From assembly GCA_029573715.1 (NCBI GenBank), contig JAKQDR010000172.1, positions 112,241 to 176,240 on the forward strand: DNA of 64,000 bases. Reading direction: 5' to 3'. Made by a program: the position numbers and the translations under genes. The first letter of the stretch is position 1. Each line of letters opens with the position of its first letter. This document shows, in pieces, positions 2,733 to 61,079 of the stretch. This stretch comes from a bacterium. GTDB lineage: Bacteria > Patescibacteriota > Microgenomatia > UBA1406 > GWC2-37-13. Below the pieces are notes generated by a model. The model worked only from the letters and a program-made list of their open reading frames with translations, did not search any database and was not told the origin of the DNA.

Positions 2733-5629
2733 AAAAGTACATGCACCATATTGTCGCACTAGCGATTTTGACGAGCATCGCAGTCTTTGTGCTCACTCGT
2801 AATTATGTGCCAGGCACCACGATTGCCGGATGGGATGATTTGCATCCAGAATTTGATTTCGGCCTCGCATTATCGCGGACTTTTGAAGGTGTGTGGCGTG
2901 CCGATCAGGGGTTGGGCACTGTTGCAGGGCACTCGCATATGGTAGAGATGCCGCGCATCGTGGTCTTGTGGTTGATATCACATTTTGTACCTACAGAGCA
3001 GGTGCGGTTTGCATTTGTTGCATTGAGCATGCTTTTTGGCGTGTGGGGCATGTACGCATTTGTGTACTATATTTCAAGATACTTTGGCACCCATCTCCCA
3101 CACCATCTCACTTATACCCGTTCGGCAGTTGCCGTTATAGCGAGTCTCATATATATGCTCCACATCGGAGTAATACAGCAATTCATATTGCCGTTTGAGA
3201 TGTTTATGGTGCAGTTTGCTTTGACGCCATGGCTCATGCTGGGAGCATTGAGTTATGTTACATCAAGAAACACAATACATCTTCTCATTTTTGCATGTAT
3301 CACATTTTTCTATTCCTCTACTGCATATGCCGCTACTTTGTGGTATGTCTTTTTTGGAATGTTTCTACTTTGGGCTTTTGGGTATGTGCGCAAACGCACT
3401 ATCCGTCCTTTTCTCATATTGTTTATAGTATTTCTTGCGATGAATCTGTATTGGCTGGGTCCTAATATCTACTTTGCAATGCAAAGAGGTCATGAAGTGC
3501 AAACATCAAAAATTAACACCATCTTTTCACCGGATATATTTGCGGCTAACAAGCAGTTTGGAAATCCTGCGGACGCACTTCTTTTGAAAGGGTTTCTCTT
3601 TGATTGGAAAGTGTATGATCATCAGTCGCAGGAACATGTGCAGATCATGCAAGCATGGCGTGACCATCTACAAAACCCATGGGTTCGTACTCTATCTTAT
3701 ACTCTGTCACTTATTGCTCTGCTGGGTATTATTCTCTCATTAGTATTGCGCAATCGTATTGTAGCTTCATTTGCAGTGTTCTTCCTAGTGCCGCTAATGA
3801 TGCTTCTTAATGGAATGTGGCCCATAAGTGGTTGGTATGAAACGCTCTCTCACCATATTCCTCTTGCTAAAGAAGCACTCAGGACACCATTTACCAAGGT
3901 ATCTATTCCCGCTGTGTTTGGCATCGCACTCTTTTTTGCGTATGTGCTTTCTTTTATCTGTCGTTTAAGCAAATGGATGCGATGTGGTTTACTCGTTCTC
4001 TTTGCCATAGCTATACTGTGGGTGGGATGTCCGGCTTTTTACGGCGGATACATTCATAAATCTGTGCAGATACGTATACCTATAGAATACAAAGATGTAT
4101 TTACCTATTTCAGAAGTCAACCACCTCATGCCCGTGTGGCCTTGTTTCCGCTGCATACGTTTTGGAATTGGACACACTATGCATGGGGATACCAGGGAGC
4201 AGGGTTTCTACAGTTTGGGATACCCCAACCAATACTCGACAGAGATTATGACAGATGGAGCAAATACAATGAACAATACAATCGAGAGATGTCGTATGCG
4301 CTGTATGCTCAAAACTCCCTCATATTAGCCCATACGCTCAATAAATATAATGTTGATTACATACTCGTTGACACTAGTGTTTTTGAGCCTTCCCTCCCTT
4401 CTCAACACAGTTTGCTTCATTGGCTTATGCCAGAATATATTGCACAGACACAACTGTTTGAGGAGCCAGTGCAGTTTGGGGACCATATCTTGATATACAA
4501 ACGGCGTATGCAATTATCTCCGCAAGTATCACTCGTGCCAGACGCGATTGAGTTTGCTGCATCAACAGCACAAAGCCCGATGGACGCTCAGTATATTTCT
4601 GTAGGTAACTACTATACAAATGTATCTCATGACACTACCGATAGTACACAAAGTCAAATAGAACGCTCACCCAATTACGTAAATAGCGAATGGCGTGCAG
4701 ATTTCTCACGGGATAATTGGGGCATATGTGCCGAGGTGCATGATGGTCAGTCAAAAAGAGTGCGTGAAAACAATAGAGTATTGTACGAGGCATATGATAC
4801 TAATCTATGTGAAACCGTAGAATTTATAGAAGTAGATCATGCAAAGGCATATGAGCTCTCCATTACTCATGAGAATCTGGAGGGCCGACCTATCATGATT
4901 TGTCTAAAAAATTTGCTCACCGGGCATTGTGACGTAAATGAGCAGCTAACGTCAGGGTCACAAAAGCGCACAGATCGCTTTGCTGTGCAACCTCTTTGGG
5001 ATTATGGGTTCGGATATCAGCTTGAGCTGACCACCATCGCGAGAGGGCGAGGAGTAAGTCGCAACAATCTATATGATGTTGTTTTGCGTGAAGTAGAAAA
5101 AGAAATAGTGATAAGAGATGTTTCAGACAACAATATACAAATTGAATATGAGGATACATCACGGTATTGGAAAGAAGTCAAGGTTCAAACTAATATGAAA
5201 AAATTAGAACCTCAGCTACTTGTTCTCAACCAAGCCTACTCACCGGGGTGGATAGGGCTTTCGGTTCAAAGTTTAAAGTTCAAGGTTCATGGATTTGAGA
5301 TGTACTTACCAACATTAGTATTACTCCCCCATGTGAAGGTGAATGGGTGGGCGAACGGTTGGTCAATCGATAGTACAGAGTACAAAGTACAGGGTACAGA
5401 GCACAAAGAACTCAGCGCTCAGCACCCCGCTGAGATTTCAAAGAGCAAGAAGCAATCTAATCTAAGCACCATGAACCATGCGCCAAGCACCAAGAGCTAT
5501 GCACCAAGCACAAAAGTTCTCCTCCTCTTCTGGCCTCAATATTTGCAGTATGTGGGGTTTGGAATACTCTTGTTGACAATGGGCGTGCTTATCGGAATAC
5601 GCACAGTTAACCTAATAAAGGTCAGATAA
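2729..5629 (+). CDS. large (966 aa) polytopic membrane protein, probable GT-C type glycosyltransferase (AftD/DUF3367-like N-terminus) with extracytoplasmic C-terminal domain and C-terminal TM anchor
   Basis: Long ORF translationally coupled to the upstream GT39-like gene. The N-terminal half has more than 10 hydrophobic segments. The N-terminus GWDDLHPEFDF...W..DQGLG resembles AftD-like proteins by eye only. Confidence 0.5.
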   Translation: MKKYMHHIVALAILTSIAVFVLTRNYVPGTTIAGWDDLHPEFDFGLALSRTFEGVWRADQGLGTVAGHSHMVEMPRIVVLWLISHFVPTEQVRFAFVALSMLFGVWGMYAFVYYISRYFGTHLPHHLTYTRSAVAVIASLIYMLHIGVIQQFILPFEMFMVQFALTPWLMLGALSYVTSRNTIHLLIFACITFFYSSTAYAATLWYVFFGMFLLWAFGYVRKRTIRPFLILFIVFLAMNLYWLGPNIYFAMQRGHEVQTSKINTIFSPDIFAANKQFGNPADALLLKGFLFDWKVYDHQSQEHVQIMQAWRDHLQNPWVRTLSYTLSLIALLGIILSLVLRNRIVASFAVFFLVPLMMLLNGMWPISGWYETLSHHIPLAKEALRTPFTKVSIPAVFGIALFFAYVLSFICRLSKWMRCGLLVLFAIAILWVGCPAFYGGYIHKSVQIRIPIEYKDVFTYFRSQPPHARVALFPLHTFWNWTHYAWGYQGAGFLQFGIPQPILDRDYDRWSKYNEQYNREMSYALYAQNSLILAHTLNKYNVDYILVDTSVFEPSLPSQHSLLHWLMPEYIAQTQLFEEPVQFGDHILIYKRRMQLSPQVSLVPDAIEFAASTAQSPMDAQYISVGNYYTNVSHDTTDSTQSQIERSPNYVNSEWRADFSRDNWGICAEVHDGQSKRVRENNRVLYEAYDTNLCETVEFIEVDHAKAYELSITHENLEGRPIMICLKNLLTGHCDVNEQLTSGSQKRTDRFAVQPLWDYGFGYQLELTTIARGRGVSRNNLYDVVLREVEKEIVIRDVSDNNIQIEYEDTSRYWKEVKVQTNMKKLEPQLLVLNQAYSPGWIGLSVQSLKFKVHGFEMYLPTLVLLPHVKVNGWANGWSIDSTEYKVQGTEHKELSAQHPAEISKSKKQSNLSTMNHAPSTKSYAPSTKVLLLFWPQYLQYVGFGILLLTMGVLIGIRTVNLIKVR

Positions 5630-6630: not shown

Positions 6631-6798
6631 GGATGTATTGATTTTGTAACGATATTAAGATACCAGGGTATAGGGTAAATTACAAACCAAGGCAGTACAT
6701 ATAGCATAGGCTACGTCACACACTTCAAATGCTATAGACGAGGTGCGACACTCATATTCTGAGACATCTGTACCATGATACAACTAAACCTATAGTAC

Positions 6799-6827
6799 TT
6801 GACAAGGGGTTTTAAATCTGGTAATAT
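6799..6827 (+). promoter_or_regulatory. sigma70-like promoter candidate: TTGACA - 17 nt - TAATAT
   Basis: TTGACA at 6799-6804 and TAATAT at 6822-6827, read directly. It lies in a long AT-rich spacer, and the first downstream plus-strand CDS starts at 7530. Confidence 0.4.
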
Positions 6828-7225
6828 GAACCTGTTCAAACATCCCAAACGGACACGTCTGGAGGTTTTTATACCCTAGAAATGTTCGGGATGAAAGGAC
6901 AAAATCGCCCCACGTCGCATAAAGCTATGCGGGGCAAGCACCTTAACAAATCGCTTTGTAAGTAGTGGAGAGACAGAGGATATTCTCATTTCATCGTTAT
7001 GTTTCGAGCGTAGTCGAGAAATCGATGAGCACGAGATATAACACCATAGGTTCATCATACCAATCACGCTTTGCATGTGAACGATATGCTGCCCTATAAC
7101 ATATGAGGATATTCACTCAACTCTCCTCTACCATACAATTTTGCATGATAGATTTTAATTTAGTTAGTATAAGTGAATCCTCCAACAGGATTTGAGAAAG
7201 AATCGAAAGCGCCACGCCACAAAGC

Positions 7226-7352
7226 TTTTTTTGGTGGAAATAAGGATCAAAAATATCAAGTTCAATGTTCATAGTTCAAAGTTCATGGATAAAACCATGC
7301 ACCACGAACCATGCACTATGAACCATACTTTGGTTTTTGTTCCCACCAAAAG
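7226..7352. repeat. long imperfect hairpin built from two opposed heptamer arrays, at the left border of GC island 2
   Basis: The outer arms are CTTTTTTTGGTGGAA (7225-7239) and GTTCCCACCAAAAG (7339-7352). The inner arms are CAAGTTC AATGTTC ATAGTTC AAAGTTC (7257-7284) and CACCACG AACCATG CACTATG AACCATA (7300-7327). Confidence 0.7.
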
Positions 7353-7516
7353 GGCTCGCAGGCCGGCGCAGTGCGCACGACCCCCCCTGGCCAACCGGCC
7401 GGAGCCCAAGCCAAAAATGCCTTCAGTATTTCGGAAGGCACAAGTGCGCGGGCTTAGGTGGCCGCGCGACTCGATTTCTTCAACCGCCGGCCTTAAAAAC
7501 CGGCACACTTCCGTAC

Positions 7517-7521
7517 GGAGG
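7517..7521 (+). promoter_or_regulatory. Shine-Dalgarno GGAGG 8 nt upstream of ATG 7530
   Basis: The sequence is cGGAGGaaagtttcATG. Most native start codons I inspected in this window lack such a motif. Confidence 0.6.
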
Positions 7522-7529
7522 AAAGTTTC

Positions 7530-12555: not shown

Positions 12556-12628
12556 CCTTTCAATTGAGCTGCAGGTAACATCCTGCAGGTTTCGTAAGTT
12601 TGAATCCCGCAATTAAGCGGGAAACCTG
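12556..12628 (-). repeat. loose relative of the tRNA-associated two-hairpin element, in the 16S 3' trailer
   Basis: The minus strand reads CAGGTTTCCCGCTTAATTGCGGGATTCAAACTTACGAAACCTGCAGGATGTTACCTGCAGCTCAATTGAAAGG. It has the same order as the tRNA-associated copies: GGTT, a CCCGC/GCGGG hairpin, A-rich linker ending AAC, a second hairpin, then TTGAA. Confidence 0.45.
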
Positions 12629-12756
12629 TTGTGTCACAATTCTTGTGACGATAGCCTTGACCGGCATGTCTTTTTCCTTGGATCGTACTTGTGGCGCCTT
12701 ATAAGCAAGCACCAAAAATACGTTTAGCGACTTTCTTCACTAAAAAGAAAAAAAGA

Positions 12757-14572
<1,816 letters not shown>

Positions 14573-14792
14573 GAAATTGCAGGAATACTCTTTTCATTGC
14601 TGAAAAGGTACCTACAGCTCAATTGCTAGGCTTGCTCGCCTCAATGTGCTTAAAGCACTTTGGGCGAGATGTGTGTGCATTCGGGCATCATACGACGCCC
14701 GAAATAATTTCCTCGATTTATCAATGTGCGGGACACTATTTTACTAGATACGAGACTCAAATACAATGGGCATAGCCTCGGGTGATCAGGAG

Positions 14793-24576: not shown

Positions 24577-25386
24577 TCATGATACGACAATATATTCACG
24601 CGCAAGATTGAGCATTTCAGAGGAACATTCTTTGTTAGAAATGACGATGTATTTGGACGATGTGTATACATCAAGAGGATTACCATGCTCATCAAGCATT
24701 ACTCCTCCTGCGGCACGCACAATAATGTCTGAAGCTGCGCGATCCCACACAAATGCCGCCGGCGTGCATGCGCACTTAAGGTGCCCTGAAGCGACAAGGC
24801 TTGCGTAATAGCAAATAGAATGAATCTCTTCCGTGCGGATTTGTCGTTCATTCAACACGCGTGAAAGTGCAGTGCAATCAAAATGCATGACTGATTCTTT
24901 GATAAATGTATTTATGCCCACCACATCGCCAGCAGTTAAGTCACCTGATCTTGTGGTGATGGCACGATCATTGGCAAACGCCGGCGAACCTTCAAATGCA
25001 TGTAGTAAAATATCTTTGTACGGATCATACATGACCCCAAATATCGGTTGTTTGTTGCGATAGAGTGCTAAGGAAAATATGGAGCATGGTATGCGGATTG
25101 TGTAGGGAATTGTGCCATCTATCGGGTCACAAATCCACTCAAATTCCTCCTGGCCGGTAGAACGACTTCCTTCTTCAGCTACTATACCGTGAGAAGGAAA
25201 ATGCTTTGAAATGGTATCAAGCACAAGTTTATTGATCTGTGTATCGGCGACAGTGAGCGGGGTTGAGTCTTCTTTTATGGATTCTCGCATATCAGTTGCG
25301 AAGTGCGTTCTCATGATATCTCCAGCTTGGTGGGCCAATTTCTTTGCGGCTTCAAACTCTGTAGAGAAATCGTGAGGATTGATCAT
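24577..25386 (-). CDS. inositol monophosphatase family protein
   Basis: It has the WICDPIDGT metal-binding motif and the family's typical length. Confidence 0.8.
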   Translation of the reverse strand: MINPHDFSTEFEAAKKLAHQAGDIMRTHFATDMRESIKEDSTPLTVADTQINKLVLDTISKHFPSHGIVAEEGSRSTGQEEFEWICDPIDGTIPYTIRIPCSIFSLALYRNKQPIFGVMYDPYKDILLHAFEGSPAFANDRAITTRSGDLTAGDVVGINTFIKESVMHFDCTALSRVLNERQIRTEEIHSICYYASLVASGHLKCACTPAAFVWDRAASDIIVRAAGGVMLDEHGNPLDVYTSSKYIVISNKECSSEMLNLAREYIVVS

Positions 25387-25394
25387 ATGTCGAT

Positions 25395-25471
25395 TGGTGA
25401 TCCCGACTGGACTTGAACCAGTGACCTTTTCAATGTCAATGAAACGCTCTAGCCAACTGAGCTACGGGATC
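25395..25471 (-). tRNA. tRNA-Val(GAC), CCA encoded
   Basis: The reverse complement GATCCCGTAGCTCAGTTGGCTAGAGCGTTTCATTGACATTGAAAAGGTCACTGGTTCAAGTCCAGTCGGGATCACCA folds as a cloverleaf. Confidence 0.9.
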
Positions 25472-28617: not shown

Positions 28618-29376
28618 ATGGCCTCTATGAGCTCGGGTTCAGGCGGATCCAAAAAAAACCGCAATTACAACAATCGCAATACTCTTGAAGTTGAAAAGCA
28701 GTACTCTGCTTCCCCCTCCCGCACTTCAACTACGCGCAGAAAATCATTTGGCGAATCGGTCCAGGATGTGATGTATGGTGCTGCGCGTGCAGCTGGCGAT
28801 GCAATGACAGGCGCTGCCACCGGAGTCATCAATGAAATTTCAGGTTACAACCAAGATACGTATGATTATGGGGATGGTTATGAAAACGCTTCTCAAGCGC
28901 AGTCGCTTGATAGGGGCGGTGTCCGCATTCCAACCTACGCTGAATTTCAAAAAGAACAAGAGCAAAAAAACATGCAATTTTTCATGGAGCAACAGCGTGC
29001 TGCTGAAGCTGAGGCTCGCAAGCGCCTGGATGAGGATAGAAAAAAAATACAAGAAATCCACGACATGCTGCGTAAAGAAATTGAAAAGTACGAAAAAGCC
29101 CAGACCACCATGAATGAAAATTTAGAGAAAATTAAAAAGATACTTCTTTTGGAGGAACAGCAAGCGAAAACAGGCATATATCATATTACCCATGCGGAGG
29201 TGCTGGTGATGATGTTCCGATCATTCGTTGCAAATGTGAGCGAGTCAAACACCTGGCTTGAGGCGATGATATCGCGCAAGAAAAAGCGGGGCAGCCTCTT
29301 TGCAGTGCAAAGCAAATCCAAAGGTACACAATACTCAATGTCGCAAGAACTTGCAATCGCTCGATCGAGTGGATAA
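28618..29376 (+). CDS. hypothetical protein with coiled-coil segment (252 aa)
   Basis: The ORF has a Q/E/K-rich helical middle (FMEQQRAAEAEARKRLDEDRKKIQEIHDMLRKEIEKYEK). No motif was recognised. Confidence 0.6.
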   Translation: MASMSSGSGGSKKNRNYNNRNTLEVEKQYSASPSRTSTTRRKSFGESVQDVMYGAARAAGDAMTGAATGVINEISGYNQDTYDYGDGYENASQAQSLDRGGVRIPTYAEFQKEQEQKNMQFFMEQQRAAEAEARKRLDEDRKKIQEIHDMLRKEIEKYEKAQTTMNENLEKIKKILLLEEQQAKTGIYHITHAEVLVMMFRSFVANVSESNTWLEAMISRKKKRGSLFAVQSKSKGTQYSMSQELAIARSSG

Positions 29377-32081: not shown

Positions 32082-32112
32082 CAAGTGGATATACGCATCG
32101 AATCCGTGTCAA

Positions 32113-32214
32113 GCAGGTTCCCCGCAATCGTGTGCGATATGCGGGACTAACTGTCCGTAATGCTCGAGTTTCACTCGTCGCAAACGGTCAGTTGAGCAAG
32201 TCCTGCCAGGCGCA
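32113..32214 (+). repeat. truncated second copy of the tRNA-Arg(UCG) T-arm and acceptor 3' strand, split inside the T-loop by a 76-nt two-hairpin element (32121-32196)
   Basis: GCAGGTTC (32113-32120) plus CAAGTCCTGCCAGGCGCA (32197-32214) reproduce the tRNA 3' part exactly. The insert is CCCGCAATCGTGTGCGATATGCGGGACTAACTGTCCGTAATGCTCGAGTTTCACTCGTCGCAAACGGTCAGTTGAG. Confidence 0.8.
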
Positions 32215-32264
32215 CATTGTTGTATCTTAACGATACGAAGTGAGTTTAGATACAACAGTGACAA

Positions 32265-32381: not shown

Positions 32382-32602
32382 AGAGTTAAGAGCAGTCCGC
32401 CAGTGGGCGGATTGGTTGAGAGTTCGAATCTCTCCGGACTCACATACACCAAGGGGAGGGGTTTCCGCCAAAAGCGGACAGGTTTTGAGAGTTCTCCCGA
32501 TAGTCATTAATAGCTATCGGGACAAATCCCGCAAAGCGGGGAAATCTCTCCGGACTCACATAAACCAAGGGGAGGGGTTTCCGCCAAAGGCGGACAGGGT
32601 TT
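32382..32602 (+). repeat. array of tRNA-like 3' halves and 52-nt direct repeats downstream of tRNA-Lys
   Basis: An uninterrupted T-arm plus acceptor strand GAGAGTTCGAATCTCTCCGGACTCA ends at 32442. A second copy (32487-32558) is split after TTC by TCCCGATAGTCATTAATAGCTATCGGGACAAATCCCGCAAAGCGGGG. The repeat CGGACTCACATAMACCAAGGGGAGGGGTTTCCGCCAAARGCGGACAGGKTTT occurs at 32435-32486 and 32551-32602. Confidence 0.8.
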
Positions 32603-41307: not shown

Positions 41308-41865
41308 ATGAAAAATGCCATTATTCTTCACGGCATAAGCTCCAAGCCAACTGATTTTTGGTTCCCTTATGTGGGCGAACAACTTCGATCACGGGGATAC
41401 AATGTGTGGACGCCCAATCTGCCCCAACCCGATGCGCCAGACATAGACGTTGTCGTCCCTTTTCTTCTTCAAAATGGCACGTTCACCTCTGAAACCGTTG
41501 TCATTGGGCATTCATCAGGTGCATCACTCATCTTGGCACTATTGGAAAAACTCTCTTCCTCTGTCGATTGCGCACTACTCGTTGCAGGATTTGTAGAGCG
41601 CGGGGGTACTCGTCCAAAAGAAGCAGTGAAACCAACGGTTGATTCTTACGCGTGGGACAAGATACGTGGTAACGCTCATAGAATTTTCATCATCAATTCA
41701 GTGAATGACCCGTGGGGGTGTGATGAAACGCAAGGACGCATTATGTTTGATCGGCTCGGAGGGACTATGATTACCAATCATGATGGTCACATGGGATCTC
41801 AATACTACAGCCAACCTTATCGTGAATTTCCTCTTCTTCTTAGTTTAGTTGATACAGTGGCCTAA
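41308..41865 (+). CDS. alpha/beta serine hydrolase, YdeN/RBBP9-like
   Basis: 185 aa, with the nucleophile elbow GHSSGA. Confidence 0.6.
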   Translation: MKNAIILHGISSKPTDFWFPYVGEQLRSRGYNVWTPNLPQPDAPDIDVVVPFLLQNGTFTSETVVIGHSSGASLILALLEKLSSSVDCALLVAGFVERGGTRPKEAVKPTVDSYAWDKIRGNAHRIFIINSVNDPWGCDETQGRIMFDRLGGTMITNHDGHMGSQYYSQPYREFPLLLSLVDTVA

Positions 41866-42626
41866 ACGCTCAAGAATTCTTCAATCTCTTGTGCGAGATT
41901 GGGATGAGCACAAATGTAGAGATCGTAACCATTGAGCAGATGATGTCGTACGACGGCTCCGGCTTCCTCATGTAAAAGGAATCGAGGAGCGATATCATAG
42001 AGGTGGTTTGGTCCATTGTAGTAACGTATGTACGCTTGAATGGTGTTTGTCAGAAGGTATGGGGCAAGTAATGTTGAAACCATCATGAGCCGATTCACAC
42101 CCGATGCAATTTTTTGAGCAAATGCAATGTGGGGGCCATTGGCAGGAAGTTTTCCTATCTCAAGCCCCACCAGGCTTTGAGCGAGTGGGCCATCATAATG
42201 CACTGTCATTTTTTGACTATTAAGGAATGCCCCCATTCCTTTTCCGGCCCAAAAGAGTTGCTTAGAAACAGGCGTGTATATTGCGGCGAAAATCACCGCA
42301 TCGGCTTCCATGAGGGCTATTTGAGTGAAATAGACGGGGTAGTGTGTGGAGAAAAACTTGGTGCCATCAATCGGGTCGATGACCCAATTGTACTGCGCGC
42401 TTTTTATCGTTTCTCCTTCTTCAACGATAAATCCCGCACCAGGCAAAATTGCAGAGAGTTTTTGGCGGAGCATCACTTCTGCCTGGACATCTATGTCTGT
42501 CTGAGGATTTTTTACCCCCTTCATTTTGAGCTCTCCAATATGATCTTGAGATTTTGCGACATAATCTCCCACCGCTACAACGGCGCTCAATGCAGCGTCT
42601 TTGACTAAATCAAGTTGAAATGCCAT
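41862..42626 (-). CDS. inositol monophosphatase family protein (second paralog)
   Basis: It has the WVIDPIDGTKFF motif. Confidence 0.75.
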   Translation of the reverse strand: MAFQLDLVKDAALSAVVAVGDYVAKSQDHIGELKMKGVKNPQTDIDVQAEVMLRQKLSAILPGAGFIVEEGETIKSAQYNWVIDPIDGTKFFSTHYPVYFTQIALMEADAVIFAAIYTPVSKQLFWAGKGMGAFLNSQKMTVHYDGPLAQSLVGLEIGKLPANGPHIAFAQKIASGVNRLMMVSTLLAPYLLTNTIQAYIRYYNGPNHLYDIAPRFLLHEEAGAVVRHHLLNGYDLYICAHPNLAQEIEEFLSV

Positions 42627-45265: not shown

Positions 45266-48250
45266 TTAATGAGTAACATCTTTCGAACTTCCTATGTAAT
45301 TCTTCTCAAACAAATACTCTCTCGTATACGATTGCTTTTCCTTCGCAAGGCCTTCACGCTTTCCCTGATAAAGAATATAGCCTCCCGCATCTCCTCCCTC
45401 AGGCCCCATATCAACGACATATTCACAATGTCTTATGATATCAAGGTTATGTTCAATGACGACCACAGTGTTTCCTTGCTCAACAAGTTTCGTGAGTGCG
45501 GTAAGCAACTTTTGCACATCGGCAAAGTGGAGCCCTGTTGTGGGCTCATCAAGAATGTAGAGCGTTCGACCGCTTCCCCCACGTGAGAGTTCATCGGCAA
45601 GTTTGATGCGTTGTGCTTCACCTCCGGAGAATGTTGGAGCAGCCTGACCGAGCTCAATATAGCCAAGCCCCACTTCTTGGAGAAATTGCAATTTTGGATA
45701 AATCTGGTGAAAGTTGACAAAGAACTCTGCCGATTCATCTACTGTCATTTTTAAAATGTCATAAATGCTTTTTCCTTTAAATCTCACCTCAAGCGTTTCA
45801 TGATTGTAGCGATGTCCTTTACACACATCGCAAGTGATATACACATCAGAGAGAAACTGCATTTCAATTTTTATCATCCCGGCACCTTGACATTTCTCAC
45901 ATCGCCCCCCCTTCACATTAAATGAAAATCGTCCCTTGTCAAACCCTCGCGCTTTAGCATCTTGTGTGTTGGCAAAAAGTTCTCGTATCGCATCAAAAAA
46001 CCCGATATATGTTGCGGGGTTTGATCGTGGAGTGCGACCAATGGGCGATTGATCAACCAAATACACTCGATCTACATAATGAAATCCCTCAAGTTTTTCA
46101 TATGCGCCCATAAATCCGCCATAGTGCCCGTCGAGATGATATTTAAGGGCAGGATATAGCGTTTCGGTGATAAGGGTGGATTTCCCCGACCCCGAAACTC
46201 CCGTGACCGCGATCAAATTGCCCAAAGGCAGGTTGAGTGACACATCTTTAAGATTAAATTGAGATGCACGACGAAGCACAATTTCCCCTTTGCTGTCCTC
46301 CAGCGTACGTGTTGGCACGGAAACAGACTTCTTCTTTGATAGATAAGCACCGGTCAGTGATTTTTTGGTTTTTTGAATAGCACTAACTGTTCCATCAAAC
46401 ACCATCTCTCCTCCCTGCTTACCGGCGCCTGGGCCGAGTTCAATGATATGGTCGGCAGATCGTATTGTCTCTTCATCATGCTCCACAATCAACAATGTGT
46501 TGCCTATGTCACGCAAATGCTTGAGTGTTTCAATCAGAGCAGCAACATCACGGGGATGAAGCCCGATAGAAGGTTCATCAAGTACATACAGGACTCCTGT
46601 GAGTCCGGTGCCGATTTGGCTGGCGAGGCGAATGCGTTGAAGCTCACCTCCCGATAAGGTTTTGCCCTTGCGGCTTAAGGTGAGGTATCCCAGTCCAACA
46701 TTGGTGAGAAATTGCAAGCGGGTGATGATTTCTTTGAGGATGGGTTTTGAGATTTGTGATTCATAATCATCCAACACCTGAGGGAGGTTTGTTTGAAAGT
46801 ACTCAATAATGTCTTTTACCGATAAGTCTCCAATTTGTGCAATATTAAAATTATCAATGGTAATGGCGAGCACTTCGGGCTTGAGTTTATCACCTTTACA
46901 ACTTTGACAAATTTCTTCGCGCATATAGCGCCCAACATCGTGCCATCCATCCTCATTTGATCCTGAAGAATTGTAGTATCTTCGCTCAAGCTCGGCAACG
47001 ATGCCATCGAATTTTTCTTGGATAATGGTGTCTTTTCCAAATCTGTTCTGTCCATTTACCCGGTATATTTTTCCGGTTCCATGCAATATAGTTTTCATTT
47101 GGTCTGAAGACAGTTTTTCGATTGGCTTATTCAGATTGATTTTCTCTACGTCGCACACTGTTTTTACCAGTCGTGTGTACCAGGTTTCTGCAAAAAAGAT
47201 TTTGGTAAAAGGAAGAATACCCCCTTCATTAATAGAGAGCTTGGGAGCAAACAGCAGGTCTGGATCTACTTTGTTCACGACACCCAGCCCTCGACATGTC
47301 TCGCATGCACCTAAGGGTGAATTAAATGAAAACATGCGCGGTTCAATCTCGGGAAGAGAAAAACCACAAACAGAACACGAGAATTTTTCGGAATATAATT
47401 GTTGTCTTATGGTGGGAGCGTATTTTTTACGACCGTCTTTACGCACCGCTTCAACATCAGATTCTTGTGTGAGTGTTTCGTGATATTGCAATATCGTAAG
47501 CCCATCTGACAATTTTGCAGCTTGTTCAACGGCTTGAGTCACTCGAACACGGAGTCCATCGGTAAAATAGGCGGCTTTCAGCTCTTTATTACTCGCATGT
47601 ATCACATCGATATATACAGAAATGGAATGCTTGTTTGTTTTAAGAAGCGGAATGTCCTCTTCAAGTGATCTCACCTCATCATCAACGATGACGGTGCGAT
47701 ACCCTTTTTGTTGAAGATTGTTAAAAAGATCAAGGAACTCGCCCTTTTTTTGTCTGACAACGGGGGAAAGTATGGTGAATTCATGGGGAGCTAATTTATT
47801 GGTAGCACATACTCGTTTCATCTCATCAAGTATTTGTCCCACAACCTGATCGACCGACAAACGTTTAATGGTTGAACCATCTTTGGGACAATGCGGCACC
47901 CCAACGCGTGCAAAGAGCACACGCAAATAGTCATACACTTCAGTGATGGTGCCAACCGTCGAGCGGGGGTTGTGACTGACCGTCTTTTGATCGATGGAAA
48001 TGCTGGGAGAAAGCCCCTCAATCATATCTACATCAGGCTTGTCCATGATGCCCAAAAACTGACGGGCATAGGCTGAGAGGCTTTCAACATATCGGCGTTG
48101 ACCTTCGGCATATACGGTGTCAAATGCAAATGAAGACTTTCCGGACCCAGACACTCCCGTCACGACCACAAAAGTATTTTTGGGAATATCAACATCGATG
48201 TTTTTGAGGTTGTGTTGGCGCGCACCACGCACCTTAATGGCCGAAAGCAT
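45266..48250 (-). CDS. uvrA: excinuclease ABC subunit A
   Basis: 994 aa, with two ABC ATPase modules ([23 protein letters not shown] signatures) and zinc-finger Cys clusters. Confidence 0.97.
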
Positions 48251-57266: not shown

Positions 57267-57335
57267 CTTGCAAAGGGATGGGGGGAGAAGTTTGTCGAAG
57301 GACAGCGAGGATGTATTAAGGCTCAAGCCCGTAAC

Positions 57336-59051
57336 ATGGAGGGCAATACTCGTATGCACGACTCACCACCGTCATCAAAACAATCATTGCAATGGCCACA
57401 GATACTCTTGTATGGCCTGGTCATACTCGGCACTGTGCTTAATCTACTCTATATTATTCCCAATGGCCATGTTACATGTGTTGATGCAACATGTGGCATT
57501 CGAATTGGAGAATGGCATTATCACGATGCACTCTGGCATATCGCCGTAGCGCGCAATTCATTTACCTCATTTCCACTACTCTTCCCTTCTGCATCTGGCT
57601 TTGAACTTACATCATACAACTACCTGTTGGGCTTCATAATATTTCTATTTGAGTGGACAAAGCTCGATCCATTTTTTGTATATTTTAAACTACTACCACT
57701 AATTGGCAATGTGCTCCTAGTTTACACACTTTTTCGATATTTTAGTCATACGCAAAAGACAAGATGGCAACAGATATGGATTACATTTTTCATGTACTTT
57801 GGATCCTCGCTTTCGTACCTGCTCATATGGTATCGAGGTAATCTTGTTGAATTTAGCATACTTAAAGGTTTTCCGGTCGTTGCAACCGTGCAGCCTGCAT
57901 TTGTACTTTCGAATGTGCAGTTTTTTCTCACCATACCTATCATCCTCTATATTTTCACCGATATCGTGACCAGAAACAGATCCCCCCATACACGTCTTAT
58001 CCACGCATCTCTACTCGCTCTTTCTATTGGTCTTAAAATCTATAGCGGGCTATTTGTCGGACTTATTCTTCTTATTGGCCTTATAGACGAATTCATTTCA
58101 AACAATAATTTTAAAAGTACATTGATATCGGGAGCCACCTATTTGTGTGTATCAATTGTTTCCGTACTAATCTTTTATCTTCCATTTCGCATGAGTTCTT
58201 CAGCATTTCCATTTGTGTGGGCTCCCTTTGCCATACCTCATGTCATCACAGAATCGCCCGGCTTGTTCTATCATAAAGATTTTACGCTCGGCAGATATTT
58301 TATGTATGGGCTCGGCACGATTTCTCCACGTCTAATCTTCTATGAACTTCTAAGCACCATGTTTTTTATTTTGTGGAATTTGGGGAGTCGTGTCATTGTG
58401 TTTGTCATCGTGCCCCTTTTAATCTTTCGTAAGGCAATACATCGAGAACACAGCATATTGTTTGCACTCGGATCTATAGGGCTCATCCTCCCCATACTGT
58501 TTATTCAATCAGGTGGTGGATGGTACAACACCATTCAATTTGCATACGTAGGGGTGTATTTGCTGGGTGTTCTTGCGGGTCTTTGTCTAGCTGTAATGAC
58601 TCAAAGTCGATTCTTATTGATGCGTGTATTTGTCATTTTCTTCGTGATAATTACTATTCCCAACAATCTACTCATGTTTTCATTGCTCGCGAAAGAAAAA
58701 TTACTTATTTCAAGTGAAGAAATACACGTGTTGACGGCCCTCAAGCAGGAGCCGCGCGGAGTTGTCTTGTCGTTTCCCGATGATAAAAATTCATCTTATG
58801 TCCCCGCTTTGTCAAACAAAATTGGTTACATGATTGACTACGAGCAGGCTCGATTGCTTGGACTACCGGTAGAAGAGCGCATTAAAAAAGTTGAGGCAAG
58901 AGATTGTTCAGTGCTTGCTGACGTTCGGTATGTGTACGTGAATTCTATCAAAGGGACAGAATATCTTGAGTGTCCCGGATTTATTGATGTGTTTAGATTG
59001 CGTCATACAAAGGGTGAGATAAGCCTGTACATGAAAATTGATTATCTTTAG
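57336..59051 (+). CDS. large polytopic membrane protein (GT-C / O-antigen-polymerase-like), function unknown
   Basis: The track ORF starts at 57240 inside the tRNA gene. I moved the start to the first ATG after the tRNA (MEGNTRMHDS...). The protein has more than 10 hydrophobic segments. Confidence 0.6.
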   Translation: MEGNTRMHDSPPSSKQSLQWPQILLYGLVILGTVLNLLYIIPNGHVTCVDATCGIRIGEWHYHDALWHIAVARNSFTSFPLLFPSASGFELTSYNYLLGFIIFLFEWTKLDPFFVYFKLLPLIGNVLLVYTLFRYFSHTQKTRWQQIWITFFMYFGSSLSYLLIWYRGNLVEFSILKGFPVVATVQPAFVLSNVQFFLTIPIILYIFTDIVTRNRSPHTRLIHASLLALSIGLKIYSGLFVGLILLIGLIDEFISNNNFKSTLISGATYLCVSIVSVLIFYLPFRMSSSAFPFVWAPFAIPHVITESPGLFYHKDFTLGRYFMYGLGTISPRLIFYELLSTMFFILWNLGSRVIVFVIVPLLIFRKAIHREHSILFALGSIGLILPILFIQSGGGWYNTIQFAYVGVYLLGVLAGLCLAVMTQSRFLLMRVFVIFFVIITIPNNLLMFSLLAKEKLLISSEEIHVLTALKQEPRGVVLSFPDDKNSSYVPALSNKIGYMIDYEQARLLGLPVEERIKKVEARDCSVLADVRYVYVNSIKGTEYLECPGFIDVFRLRHTKGEISLYMKIDYL

Positions 59052-59106
59052 TGTCGCACTACTTATAGTATGTTTGGCCTCTCGATGATAAAATATGAGG
59101 GTTGTC

Positions 59107-59178
59107 GCCGCCTTAGCTCAGTGGTAGAGCACTCGCTTTGTAAGCGAATGGTCGCGGGTTCGAATCCGGCAGGCGGCT
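59107..59178 (+). tRNA. tRNA-Thr(UGU), CCA not encoded, one G-G mismatch in the T-stem
   Basis: GCCGCCTTAGCTCAGTGGTAGAGCACTCGCTTTGTAAGCGAATGGTCGCGGGTTCGAATCCGGCAGGCGGCT. The acceptor stem is perfect, while T-stem GCGGG/CCGGC has a central mismatch. Confidence 0.75.
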
Positions 59179-59197
59179 CATAGCTTGGAGTAACAAC

Positions 59198-59225
59198 AGA
59201 TATGAGTTGGTAGATATGAGTTGGT
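59198..59225 (+). repeat. exact 14-nt tandem duplication AGATATGAGTTGGT x2
   Basis: Read directly. It lies inside the decayed tRNA-Thr copy. Confidence 0.9.
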
Positions 59226-59230
59226 CGATC

Positions 59231-59326
59231 GGGTTCCCCGCTTCGCATATTGCTTTGCGGGATAAACTGGCAGGTAATGCTCATTGCATTCGCAAACTGC
59301 CAGTTGAACGAATCCGGCAGGCGGCT
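59231..59326 (+). repeat. truncated copy of the tRNA-Thr T-arm and acceptor 3' strand, split in the T-loop by a 72-nt two-hairpin element (59237-59308)
   Basis: GGGTTC plus CGAATCCGGCAGGCGGCTCATAG reproduce the tRNA 3' end and 5 trailer nt. The insert is CCCGCTTCGCATATTGCTTTGCGGGATAAACTGGCAGGTAATGCTCATTGCATTCGCAAACTGCCAGTTGAA. Confidence 0.8.
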
Positions 59327-59336
59327 CATAGTTCAA

Positions 59337-59413
59337 GGCCTCATAGCTCAATTGGACAGAGCAACTCCCTTCTAAGGAGTAGGTTGGCCGTTCGATTCGG
59401 CCTGAGGTCACCA
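59337..59413 (+). tRNA. tRNA-Arg(UCU), CCA encoded
   Basis: GGCCTCATAGCTCAATTGGACAGAGCAACTCCCTTCTAAGGAGTAGGTTGGCCGTTCGATTCGGCCTGAGGTCACCA. The final A is also the A of ATG 59413. Confidence 0.9.
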
Positions 59414-60675
59414 TGAATTCAGTAAGTAGTAACAAAAAGAAGTATCTATTCTTCCCTATCGAGATCGGACTTGCCCATATTTGCCGTTCTCTCGCTGTTG
59501 CCGAGGAGCTTGTTGCGCGGGGTCACACGGTGTATTTTGCTCTCCCTAAGCGCAAATGGAAGTTGTTTTCTCATACCACCGTTACTTTAGTTTCGATTGA
59601 AAGTTATGTAGCTGCTGACGATTTCGGCATGAATGTGAAACTGTTTCGAGATCCAAAACTTATCGATCGGGTGGTATCAGAGGAATTAGCGCTCATTGAC
59701 AAGTACAATCCTGATGCAGTAATTGTTGATTTCCGTATTTCTGCTTTTGCGGCAGCTACCATACGAGGTATATGCACGTTTGCTATTTTTGTGGGCGACG
59801 GCCTCCCTTATGGTGCTCATTTGCCTAATCCCGGCCTGCCTCGATGGGCATATCGATTGTTTCGTAATGTCTTTCCAAAATTGTATGATGTGGCATCACG
59901 CTGGTACCTCAACCCGTTTATCAAATATATGCGAAATCATGGGGTACACACATCATTTGATGCGTGGATGCGTGCAGTTACCTATATCGTCCCTGAAGCG
60001 CCGTTTTATATGCCTCCTGCCTCATCAACACTCCAGGTGCATCACACAGGTACCCTCGGTTGGTATGCATTTGATAATCCAATACCCCCATGGCTTGACA
60101 AGATGTGCCCGGATGGACGCACCGTGTATGTAAGTTTTGGAGGTACCGGGTTTGATAAAAACAAACCAATCGAAATCTGCATGGCCCTTGTGAAGAAGGG
60201 TTATCGTGTAATTGTCACAACAGGATCAATTTCAAACCCGTCCGACTATCCATCACATCCCAATCTTTTTGTCACGACTTTTTTGCCAGGCAACACAATA
60301 TCTAAAAAAATTGATGTGCTTGTGTGTCATGGGGGGTATGGCACGATGATGGATGCGATTCAATGTGGGGTACCGGTTGTTGCAATTCCTTTTAATCCCG
60401 ATCAGATATTACACGCAGCACGCATGCAGGAGCTTGGGCTTGCCAAATCTCTTCTGACGCTTTCCGCCCGTGACACATATAATGCGTTTACGTTTCAATG
60501 GAAACATATTGAGGAAAAAGGCAAGCAAATACCATCAAGCACCATTGTCCAGGCAGTGGATGAGTTGATAAAGAAGAAAGATTTGTATCAAACCAATATT
60601 CGAAACTTTAACGCGAAATATCCCAGCACCAACGGCGCATCAGAAGCTGCTGATATAGTTGAAAAGGGCCGTTAG
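59413..60675 (+). CDS. GT1-family (MGT/UDP-glycosyltransferase-like) glycosyltransferase
   Basis: It has the C-terminal nucleotide-sugar signature VCHGGYGTMMDAIQCGVPVVAIPFNPDQ. Confidence 0.75.
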   Translation: MNSVSSNKKKYLFFPIEIGLAHICRSLAVAEELVARGHTVYFALPKRKWKLFSHTTVTLVSIESYVAADDFGMNVKLFRDPKLIDRVVSEELALIDKYNPDAVIVDFRISAFAAATIRGICTFAIFVGDGLPYGAHLPNPGLPRWAYRLFRNVFPKLYDVASRWYLNPFIKYMRNHGVHTSFDAWMRAVTYIVPEAPFYMPPASSTLQVHHTGTLGWYAFDNPIPPWLDKMCPDGRTVYVSFGGTGFDKNKPIEICMALVKKGYRVIVTTGSISNPSDYPSHPNLFVTTFLPGNTISKKIDVLVCHGGYGTMMDAIQCGVPVVAIPFNPDQILHAARMQELGLAKSLLTLSARDTYNAFTFQWKHIEEKGKQIPSSTIVQAVDELIKKKDLYQTNIRNFNAKYPSTNGASEAADIVEKGR

Positions 60676-60708
60676 TCCCGCGGAGTCTTGACGAACCGGG
60701 AAACCTCC
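60671..60708 (-). repeat. truncated copy (T-stem strand plus hairpin 1 plus ACTAAC) of the tRNA-Leu(GAG)-associated element, overlapping the GT1 stop codon
   Basis: The minus strand reads GGAGGTTTCCCGGTTCGTCAAGACTCCGCGGGACTAAC. Compare GGAGGTTCCCCACTTCGTCAAGACTTCGCGGGACTAAC at 61032-60995. Confidence 0.75.
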
Positions 60709-60935
60709 ACCAGCTTCCTTATTTACTATGAACACATGTGGGTGGCCCGCCACAGTTCGGGCTTTCGGCTTAGGTCGCATATCTGCGACACAAGAATCGT
60801 ATTTCTAACTATCTTGCAATAGTTAGAAACGATCTCTATGCATATTTTCGCTGCGCCTCATGCGCTCACTTATCGGCGGGCATTGATATACCTAACCTCG
60901 CCATATGTTGCTTTGCTCGCTAAGGTATATCAATG

Positions 60936-61032
60936 TGCCCGAGAGAGGATTTGCTCAACGGGCAGTATACGAATGCAATGAGTAGTACCTGCCCGTTAGT
61001 CCCGCGAAGTCTTGACGAAGTGGGGAACCTCC
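60936..61032 (-). repeat. truncated copy of the tRNA-Leu(GAG) T-arm and acceptor 3' strand, split in the T-loop by a 71-nt two-hairpin element (60954-61024)
   Basis: The minus strand reads GGAGGTTC [CCCACTTCGTCAAGACTTCGCGGGACTAACGGGCAGGTACTACTCATTGCATTCGTATACTGCCCGTTGAG] CAAATCCTCTCTCGGGCACA. Confidence 0.8.
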
Positions 61033-61079
61033 AGGTGATAAGGTAATAAAAAGTGTTGCTGCGTGACTCAGATTATATG

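Follow-up and report, generated by a model that had tools for sequence, protein, structure and literature searches.

The region examined here extends from position 59,107 to 59,413 of the window, by which we mean the whole 64,000-nucleotide (nt) stretch of DNA that was analysed (contig JAKQDR010000172.1, positions 112,241 to 176,240, forward strand). It comprises a transfer RNA gene, tRNA-Thr(UGU), a 148-nt repeat unit in which a partial copy of this tRNA is split by a hairpin module (module E), a second tRNA gene, tRNA-Arg(UCU), and the start of a glycosyltransferase (GT) gene. The window is chromosomal DNA of a bacterium of the candidate phyla radiation (CPR), and it encodes RuvA, RuvB, UvrA, UvrB, UvrC, aminoacyl-tRNA synthetases and a 16S gene. 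The nearest named relatives of the GT and of the 571 amino acid (aa) protein encoded upstream belong to Woesebacteria, Roizmanbacteria and other Microgenomates, and the source genome is Woesebacteria-like (Microgenomates, CPR). Comparable loci from other contigs are referred to by L numbers. The features of the locus are the following.

59086..59094, plus strand: extended -10 promoter-like box TGATAAAAT, read from sequence, 12 nt upstream of tRNA-Thr
59107..59179, plus strand: intact tRNA-Thr(UGU), called by ARAGORN (TGT) and by the Rfam tRNA model (66.1 bits), with no encoded CCA and with the trailer CATAG
59161..59183, plus strand: first copy of the 23-nt repeat, from C56 of the T-loop to the discriminator and the 5-nt trailer (100% identity in the repeat search)
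59184..59331, plus strand: 148-nt repeat unit, made up of spacer X, a T-stem 5' mimic, hairpin module E and the exact tRNA 3' end
59198..59225, plus strand: exact 14-nt tandem duplication, AGATATGAGTTGGT twice, inside spacer X
59223..59236, plus strand: imperfect variable-loop/T-stem 5' half with TTC, GGTCGATCGGGTTC (GGTCGCGGGTTC in the gene), local alignment p = 2e-4
59237..59308, plus strand: module E, 72 nt, with hairpin H1 at 59237-59261 (CCCGC-loop-GCGGG), the linker ATA, the long hairpin H2 at 59265-59305 and the end GAA
59309..59331, plus strand: second copy of the 23-nt repeat, tRNA-Thr 3' end and CATAG (repeat search)
59337..59413, plus strand: tRNA-Arg(UCU) with encoded CCA, called by ARAGORN (TCT) and Rfam (about 66 bits)
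59413..60675, plus strand: GT1/GT28-type GT gene, 420 aa, with Pfam Glyco_tran_28_C, EryCIII-like_C and UDPGT matches and an N-terminus kept in homologues

The original prediction had described the stretch as an intact tRNA-Thr followed by a decayed copy whose T-loop is interrupted by a 72-nt element, and then by a tRNA-Arg that overlaps the GT start codon. Its observations were confirmed, while its interpretation was supported only in part. Both tRNA genes were called by ARAGORN and Rfam at about 66 bits each, and the exact 14-nt tandem duplication was recovered by the repeat search. The 3' end of tRNA-Thr together with five trailer bases is indeed repeated without change, since the 23-mer CGAATCCGGCAGGCGGCTCATAG occurs exactly at both sites, 148 nt apart. 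The 72-nt insert sits between GGGTTC and (C)GAATCC of the partial T-arm and folds as two hairpins (z = -4.8). The G-G mismatch noted in the T-stem of both the gene and the copy (G51-G63) was also found in the orthologous tRNA-Thr genes of the relatives L001, L012 and L036, which have the same sequence, and is thus a normal trait. Judged from the score of 66 bits and this conservation, the functional status of tRNA-Thr is not in doubt.

The view of the unit as a decayed whole tRNA gene had to be narrowed. A partial tRNA-Thr copy does exist, but only the T-arm and the 3' end (positions about 44-76) are derived from the tRNA. From the tRNA pieces that had been recognised in the spacer, GGTCG(AT)CGGGTTC was significant in local alignment (p = 2e-4), while TAGCT and TGGTAGA were not. 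The spacer aligned to tRNA positions 1-43 with p = 0.08, and with p = 0.97 when the 14-nt duplication was collapsed, as TGGTAGA is created by the junction of this duplication. The acceptor 5' strand, the D arm and the anticodon arm could not be recognised, so that the unit was rejected both as a functional and as a decayed whole tRNA gene; no tRNA was called in 59184-59331 by ARAGORN or Rfam. A coding unit was rejected as well, because 148 is not a multiple of 3 and the frame would shift with every copy. The 14-nt duplication, found in each unit of all arrays, can pair with the GGCGGCTCATAG 3' end, and this pairing was seen in the minimum-energy folds.

Exact searches and searches with three mismatches, made in the window with both hairpins, returned the tRNA-Thr copy only, and it was sensitive BLAST that exposed a family. 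The 72-nt element is therefore not unique. It does split the T-loop as described. A covariance model was built from five E copies, and the tRNA-Thr copy scores 106 bits against it. The other copies in the window are the following.

32083..32216, plus strand: sister unit after tRNA-Arg(TCG), with a 29-nt spacer, GCAGGTTC, E at 32121-32196 and the exact 20-nt 3' end CAAGTCCTGCCAGGCGCACA (covariance model, 84 bits)
60933..61078, minus strand: sister unit after tRNA-Leu(GAG), with a 44-nt spacer, TGGAGGTTC, E at 61024..60954 and an exact 21-nt 3' end (covariance model, 93.6 bits)
60665..60710, minus strand: truncated unit (GGTGGAGGTT, H1, ACTAACGG), which abuts and overlaps the GT stop codon
32338..32600, plus strand: array after tRNA-Lys(CTT), an uninterrupted partial 3' copy with a foreign acceptor strand and then a second copy with an insert

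The architecture found at tRNA-Thr is thus repeated after two further tRNAs of the window: behind the intact tRNA come 29-44 nt of unrelated spacer, the T-stem 5' half with TTC (8-9 nt), E, and the exact 3' copy, which at tRNA-Arg(TCG) and tRNA-Leu(GAG) measures 20-21 nt including 2-3 trailer bases. In these 3' units E always lies between TTC and RAATCC of the partial copy. The consensus of the 3' unit is a non-conserved spacer of 28-53 nt, a short and often imperfect T-stem 5' half with TTC, E, and an exact 3' end running from the T-loop to a few bases beyond the gene, with a total length of about 90-150 bp. E itself opens with a CCCGC/GCGGG hairpin, which AYWAA links to the long, covarying hairpin, and closes with GTTGAR. 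The second tRNA-Lys copy carries in its T-loop a 46-nt two-hairpin insert in reverse orientation, matched by the model on the minus strand at 32486-32549 (17.6 bits). The GT stop codon falls within the truncated E copy of the opposite strand, and a like arrangement was seen in the relative L026. Appendages were found at four of the eight window tRNAs, all four lacking an encoded CCA, and on none of the three tRNAs with an encoded CCA.

Outside the window, strong model matches were obtained after tRNA-Leu(GAG) in the relatives L027 and L044-L046, the units of L027 and L044 standing at the matching site. The E copy at tRNA-Leu(GAG) of L044 differs from the window's tRNA-Thr copy at about 5 of 73 positions (manual count), although the adjoining proteins share only about 60% identity. 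Spacers at this tRNA-Leu(GAG) site have diverged. Weaker matches came from incomplete 5' copies of tRNAs that precede the intact genes, and E is mostly mirrored there: in L040 and L044 it lies in the D-loop of a partial tRNA-Leu(TAA) 5' copy, and one partial tRNA-Leu(GAG) 5' copy of L040 carries it between the acceptor stem and the D stem. More distant Patescibacteria loci gave no match to the model. A 21-mer of H2 was found in no genome contig and, among metagenome contigs, only in that of the same species.

These observations bear on whether the arrangement arose simply as a tandem duplicate of tRNA-Thr whose 5' half decayed before an insertion into its T-loop, leaving the repeats as immobile relics. 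The T-arm and 3' end are truly tRNA-derived and the region after tRNA-Lys resembles a fuller decayed tRNA copy, as such a course would predict. We nevertheless regard it as very unlikely, since there is no similarity to the 5' half (p = 0.97), the same geometry occurs at several tRNAs and is mirrored at 5' ends, the 3' copies match at 100% in every case beside unrelated spacers, and both copy number and presence differ between strains.

Several observations lie beside the E family. At 6903-6956 (plus strand) a solo H1 hairpin homologous to that of tRNA-Thr (CCCCACGTCGCATAAAGCTATGCGGGG) is flanked on both sides by AAATCG; it has no Rfam match and lies in a non-coding region of about 900 nt (6631-7529), unusually long for a CPR genome. 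Just 3' of the 16S end, at 12585-12629 (minus strand), an H1-like hairpin, TCCCGC TTAATT GCGGGA, is enclosed by CAGGTTTC/GAAACCTG. The 16S rRNA gene itself (12756-14575, minus strand) measures 1820 nt against a 1533-nt model, which indicates CPR-type insertions, one of them at about 13120-13230. In the Woesebacteria record L012, exactly 100 N (4123-4222) stand directly downstream of tRNA-Leu(GAG), where others have an E unit; the run is either masked sequence or a scaffold gap to which the repeat gave rise. Behind the tRNA units there is a second conserved module, in which a variable long hairpin precedes TGCCCGCCGATAA..GAGCGC.TGA..CGCAGCG..AATATG; it was seen at 60720-60932 (minus strand) in the tRNA-Leu(GAG) region of the window and at 2379-2470 of L036 in the tRNA-Leu(TAA) region. 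In the window, this non-coding stretch of about 210 nt takes the place of the helix-turn-helix, hypothetical and RadC genes that lie between the GT and tRNA-Leu(GAG) in the relatives.

Thirteen E copies were aligned in order to compare their stems. The H1 stem CCCGC/GCGGG is invariant, and H2 shows compensatory, two-sided changes at 8 of its 9 pairs, with 94% of the cells paired and G-U pairs essentially absent; the alignment was fitted to the covariance model and these pairing figures are therefore biased towards structure. Compensatory changes are visible by eye as well (AACTGGCAG/CTGCCAGTT, AACGGGCAG/CTGCCCGTT and AAGCAGCAG/CTGCTG.CTT). The invariant H1, the compensation in H2, the near absence of G-U pairs and the reversible orientation in palindromic loop DNA together indicate hairpins formed by DNA, and E would accordingly act at the DNA level.

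Covarying helices would also be expected if E and the partial tRNA end formed a functional structured RNA within the tRNA-Thr/tRNA-Arg/GT precursor, a three-way junction closed by a T-stem-like helix and serving as a processing, decoy or regulatory element. The conserved extended -10 would place the unit within a transcription unit, E is highly conserved including its loops at the tRNA-Leu(GAG) site across genera, and it has the orientation of the tRNA in six T-loop cases. Furthermore, the tRNA-Thr unit of the window and the L027 unit fold into a three-way junction (z about -3), and one stem single-nucleotide polymorphism (SNP) changes G-C to G-U on the sense strand. However, no Rfam match was obtained at E <= 10, and the fold of the whole unit is not conserved, the tRNA-Leu unit giving z = -0.75 and the tRNA-Arg unit folding differently. 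E is reversed at tRNA-Lys and in the 5' partial copies, G-U pairs are almost absent, and one H1 mismatch is A-C on the sense strand where the antisense strand would have G-U. The copy number moreover varies from 0 to at least 3 with no visible compensation. Thus a functional RNA seems quite unlikely.

The comparative look at the locus revealed a tandem unit of variable number. Among contigs encoding an identical GT or an identical upstream protein, the window and L005 have one 148-nt unit, L006 has two (a period-148 tandem array of 2.2 copies), L032, a contig of 448 kb, has three, and L007 and L008 have at least three each; several near-identical contigs end within the array. The units fall into two types, A and B, set apart by 2 SNPs. 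B invariably occupies the most distal place and the tRNA-proximal A units are identical, while the unit of L005 is an A/B hybrid. The unit is absent from the relatives L001, L012, L036, L040 and L042-L047. In the unit-free relatives (GT identity 77-60%) tRNA-Thr is followed by a short spacer or at once by tRNA-Arg, and the GT and the conserved unknown protein flank the site there too. At tRNA-Leu(TAA), comparison of 57267-57300 with L006 620-710 and L032 2345-2435, which are of the same species, showed 87 extra nt in the latter two; the aligner placed them in the T-loop, and they lack the E module and are bounded by 43-nt direct repeats that begin in the T-loop. Strains can therefore gain or lose partial-end units. 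Slippage, or unequal exchange between the 23-nt repeats, surely plays a part; it accounts for the hybrid unit of L005 and possibly for the single unit of the window.

Since several contigs end inside the repeat, and the lone A-type unit of the window with no distal B could be a collapse, the tandem arrangement might be suspected to be an assembly artefact. We hold this to be practically negligible, because independent assemblies from different samples and sources (JGI, ENA, Logan) span one, two and three units with identical junctions and consistent SNPs.

Direct repeats of attachment (att) type, from the T-loop to past the gene end, are present at tRNA-Thr, tRNA-Leu(GAG) and tRNA-Arg(TCG) (exact over 23, 21 and 20 nt). 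The units could thus be remnant att sites of islands or prophages whose tyrosine integrases cross over in the T-loop, the interior having been deleted and E being a separate palindromic element that landed later in the dispensable attR copies. T-loop att sites are known, the attB of Ms6 being reported to lie in the T-loop of a tRNA-Ala (PMC1762012), and tycheposons are accompanied by partial tRNAs, remnants and tandem junctions (bioRxiv 10.1101/2020.12.28.424599). The units resemble such tRNA-targeting integrative elements (T-loop tyrosine integrases, tycheposons, CIME-like decayed elements) in the direct repeat from the T-loop to past the gene, in the regeneration of the gene by element sequence, and in the occurrence of partial tRNAs in strain-variable arrays. 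An identity block of this extent with an imperfect T-stem 5' mimic is typical of T-loop att sites, and at tRNA-Lys one partial copy is uninterrupted and bears a foreign acceptor strand. In contrast, no integrase gene or cargo was found between or near the repeats, the tRNA-Thr repeats being only 125 nt apart (Pfam, 50 window open reading frames (ORFs)), and no unit has an integrase near it. All interiors are tiny (28-64 nt), and in nearly every copy E occupies precisely the presumed crossover point, something that an independent later insertion would not predict. The mirror-image 5' D-loop units are atypical of integrases. The units thus differ from integrative elements in their gene-free interior of about 125 nt, the hairpin module at the crossover, the 5'-end/D-loop versions and the lack of an integrase, and an origin from att remnants is, in our judgement, unlikely.

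We tentatively read the stretch instead as one of a set of lineage-specific short DNA units at tRNA ends, which would be selfish, non-autonomous mobile DNA with E as its cis-acting hairpin end; the probability of this reading comes near to an even chance but falls short of it. In its favour, the same architecture is present at three window tRNAs, with a reversed variant at a fourth, and T-loop copies occur also in L027 and L044-L046. Further support comes from the differing unit numbers of near-identical contigs and the unit-free relatives, from the closeness of the L044 E copy to that of tRNA-Thr, from the signs of DNA hairpins, from the 87-nt polymorphism at tRNA-Leu(TAA), from the distal position of B in the arrays and from GIY-YIG cassettes at tRNA ends of relatives. 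In the frame of the T-loop, the unit would be inserted at TTC^RAA and would bring its own replacement for the displaced tRNA end. As the unit supplies this replacement, the gene would stay intact and a T-loop-split pseudo-end would remain downstream. The 5' units would follow the mirrored logic in the D-loop. At tRNA-Thr the unit would have been amplified in tandem with new copies next to the tRNA, while units would be lost or reshuffled when the 23-nt repeats exchange unequally.

Our favoured guess for the enzymology is HUH-type single-strand transposition, IS91-like and one-ended by rolling circle, with the enzyme encoded elsewhere. IS91 family elements produce no target-site duplication and have no terminal inverted repeats, use a GTTC/CTTG-type target, carry two subterminal palindromes, and by one-ended transposition co-mobilise flanking DNA via single-strand circles (PMC13181058). 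Like IS91, IS801, IS1294 and ISCR, the units lack target-site duplications and terminal inverted repeats and have two imperfect subterminal palindromes at one end; in the T-loop cases they stand next to a GTTC that every T-loop contains, and co-mobilisation of adjacent DNA through single-strand circles would allow a unit of 120-150 nt. The bottom strand reads E, adjacent DNA and tRNA end, terminating in the T-loop, and a circle of this composition inserted into an intact T-loop would reproduce the observed order exactly. Failed termination or repeated insertion would add further units on the tRNA-proximal side, which matches the A-A-B polarity. Unlike IS91 family members, the units have no transposase gene in the window and E has no demonstrated similarity to any oriIS; they are 10 times smaller than any IS91 member, their target lies inside tRNA loops, and they carry a replacement tRNA end.

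Several points weigh against mobility of this kind. No transposase, integrase or reverse transcriptase was detected in the window or adjoining any unit (Pfam scans, 50 window ORFs), the search of the window for an HUH (Y2) transposase included. No E copy was found in phage, plasmid or viral contigs; the phage and plasmid BLAST matches were due to chance only, and viral scans with the tRNA 3' 18-mer and a degenerate H1 pattern gave unrelated coding DNA only. E follows GGTTC in all T-loop cases and GGAAC in the D-loop cases. The agreement with the IS91 target is confounded, as GTTC is present in every T-loop, and the D-loop and position-8/9 junctions fit no single tetranucleotide, the latter falling outside the pattern. 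The origin of the T-stem 5' piece in the first unit at each tRNA is left unexplained by the model. A functional RNA would likewise be compatible with the strong conservation of E, loops included, and with the constant orientation that it shows in six T-loop cases. Slippage alone can change the copy number, and an assembly collapse could have left the window with its single unit.

Known palindromic repeats were compared as well. Rickettsia palindromic elements can land in RNA genes. E resembles REP/REPIN, RPE and GC-cluster repeats as a short, GC-rich, hairpin-forming, non-coding and multi-copy sequence with stem covariation. It differs from them in being low-copy, strictly confined to tRNA-derived loops and coupled to a duplicated tRNA end, and no RAYT-like gene was seen. 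No account of hairpin elements splitting T-loops in CPR bacteria was found in the literature. The E units form an undescribed, lineage-specific family, and they are most likely non-autonomous mobile DNA whose general kind is known (tRNA-targeted insertion that preserves the gene, or single-strand transposition with hairpin ends) but whose miniature form is new.

A number of other identities were tried and rejected. A miniature inverted-repeat transposable element of the DDE type was discarded, since the repeat search of 58900-59600 returned none in inverted orientation, the two ends (CCCCGC... and ...GTTGAA) are not inverted complements of each other, and TTC|RAA on either side reads as a contiguous T-loop in which nothing is duplicated. 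Among known RNA families (ribozymes, tmRNA, Y-RNA-like RNAs and riboswitches were considered) only tRNA and 16S rRNA passed Rfam, three E loci being matchless at E <= 10. An archaeal-type tRNA intron or split tRNA would need a 5' exon, which is lacking; the junctions cannot form the 4-bp central helix of a bulge-helix-bulge motif, and an intact gene is present. Permuted tRNA and tmRNA readings failed for want of a 5' tRNA half and of an Rfam match to E. Guide or antitoxin arrays (CRISPR, TIGR, type III toxin-antitoxin) were rejected because the units are identical but for 2 SNPs and the flanking genes persist where units are missing. The ends resemble the RYYYAAC...GTTRRRY of integron attC sites, but the junction lies 3 nt away from the G|TT crossover, and known attC sites exceed H2 in length. 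A serine recombinase was rejected because the two junctions do not both retain the central dinucleotide.

Small GIY-YIG ORFs (88-98 aa) were found inserted at tRNA 5' ends in L040 (14081-14660, minus strand) and L036 (1850-2290). The ORF of L040 lies between a partial 5' copy of tRNA-Leu(GAG), dotted with solo CCCGC-NNN-GCGGG hairpins, and the intact tRNA, into which it reads, with its TGA stop in the anticodon loop; that of L036 is flanked by direct repeats of about 40 nt of the tRNA-Leu(TAA) leader. From these cassettes it follows that tRNA ends in the clade are active insertion sites. In the window itself, no small GIY-YIG ORF was recovered by a motif search.

As to expression of the locus, the extended -10 is not peculiar to the window: TGGTAAAAT stands at an equal distance before tRNA-Thr in L001, L012 and L036, so that TGnTAAAAT is kept 12-13 nt 5' of tRNA-Thr in the window and in these three relatives. 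It was not reported by the promoter/terminator consensus scan, which requires both hexamers and which gave no site within the 148-nt unit. The box may be the start of a tRNA-Thr/unit/tRNA-Arg/GT transcript, in which the units would be carried as transcribed passengers between tRNA-Thr and tRNA-Arg/GT. The upstream 571-aa protein (57336-59051, plus strand), between tRNA-Leu(TAA) and tRNA-Thr, is conserved and syntenic across the clade and has no Pfam domain. At the window edge, a 51-nt GC-rich tandem repeat of 2.6 copies (24-155) probably lies within a coding region.

The overlap of tRNA-Arg with the GT gene was found as originally predicted: CCA occupies 59411-59413 and its final A doubles as the A of the GT ATG. 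The lack of room for a promoter or ribosome-binding site, which had been pointed out, did not prove to be an anomaly. A conserved extended -10 precedes tRNA-Thr, and a Shine-Dalgarno core (GGAG, GAGG or AGGA) was found upstream in only 5 of 43 window genes, that of the GT lying inside the tRNA. TATAAT-like boxes occur 6-12 nt before the ATG in several genes, for example at 28618, 41862-42626 (minus strand) and 45266-48250 (minus strand), which suggests that leaderless mRNAs may be widespread in this genome. A second tRNA-abutting start in the window is that of the inositol monophosphatase gene, 9 nt past the encoded CCA of tRNA-Val(GAC) (25386-25471, minus strand). In the relatives the GT starts 0-9 nt after tRNA-Arg, with the same overlap in L026 and a gap of 7-9 nt in L001, L012, L027 and L036, and in a 47%-identical relative a GTG start lies 2 nt after tRNA-Val. 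The overlap thus exists but is nothing unusual in an organism with few Shine-Dalgarno cores and with conserved gene starts next to tRNAs. It is likely that tRNA-Arg and the GT are co-transcribed and that tRNA 3' processing makes the mRNA 5' end, with initiation of the leaderless type. Co-transcripts of tRNAs with leaderless or near-leaderless mRNAs occur in the tRNA-tufB operon of E. coli and in mitochondrial tRNA punctuation. As in these, tRNA-Arg abuts the GT start so that processing of its 3' end would create the mRNA 5' end; unlike them, the arrangement is a conserved habit of a Shine-Dalgarno-poor CPR genome and involves a one-base overlap.

Genomes of CPR bacteria are tiny, carry most of their tRNA genes as single copies and contain few mobile elements that have been recognised. 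The units may represent a new class of minimal mobile element targeting tRNA loops, in which a circle or single strand of about 120-150 nt with a hairpin recombination module and a replacement tRNA end would be inserted into T-loops or D-loops with no inactivation of the gene and would form polar arrays growing on the tRNA-proximal side; this stronger claim is doubtful, though a real possibility. If true, no smaller integrative elements that preserve their target gene would be known, the units could serve as markers of strain history in CPR bacteria, and such units of 90-150 bp would constitute a new survival route for selfish DNA in streamlined genomes. The units also break short-read assemblies, and both tRNA annotation and binning could be led astray by the pseudo-tRNA ends and contig breaks that they create. 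Finally, the conserved junctions between tRNAs and start codons and the almost complete lack of Shine-Dalgarno sequences suggest that leaderless mRNAs may arise through tRNA processing in this clade.

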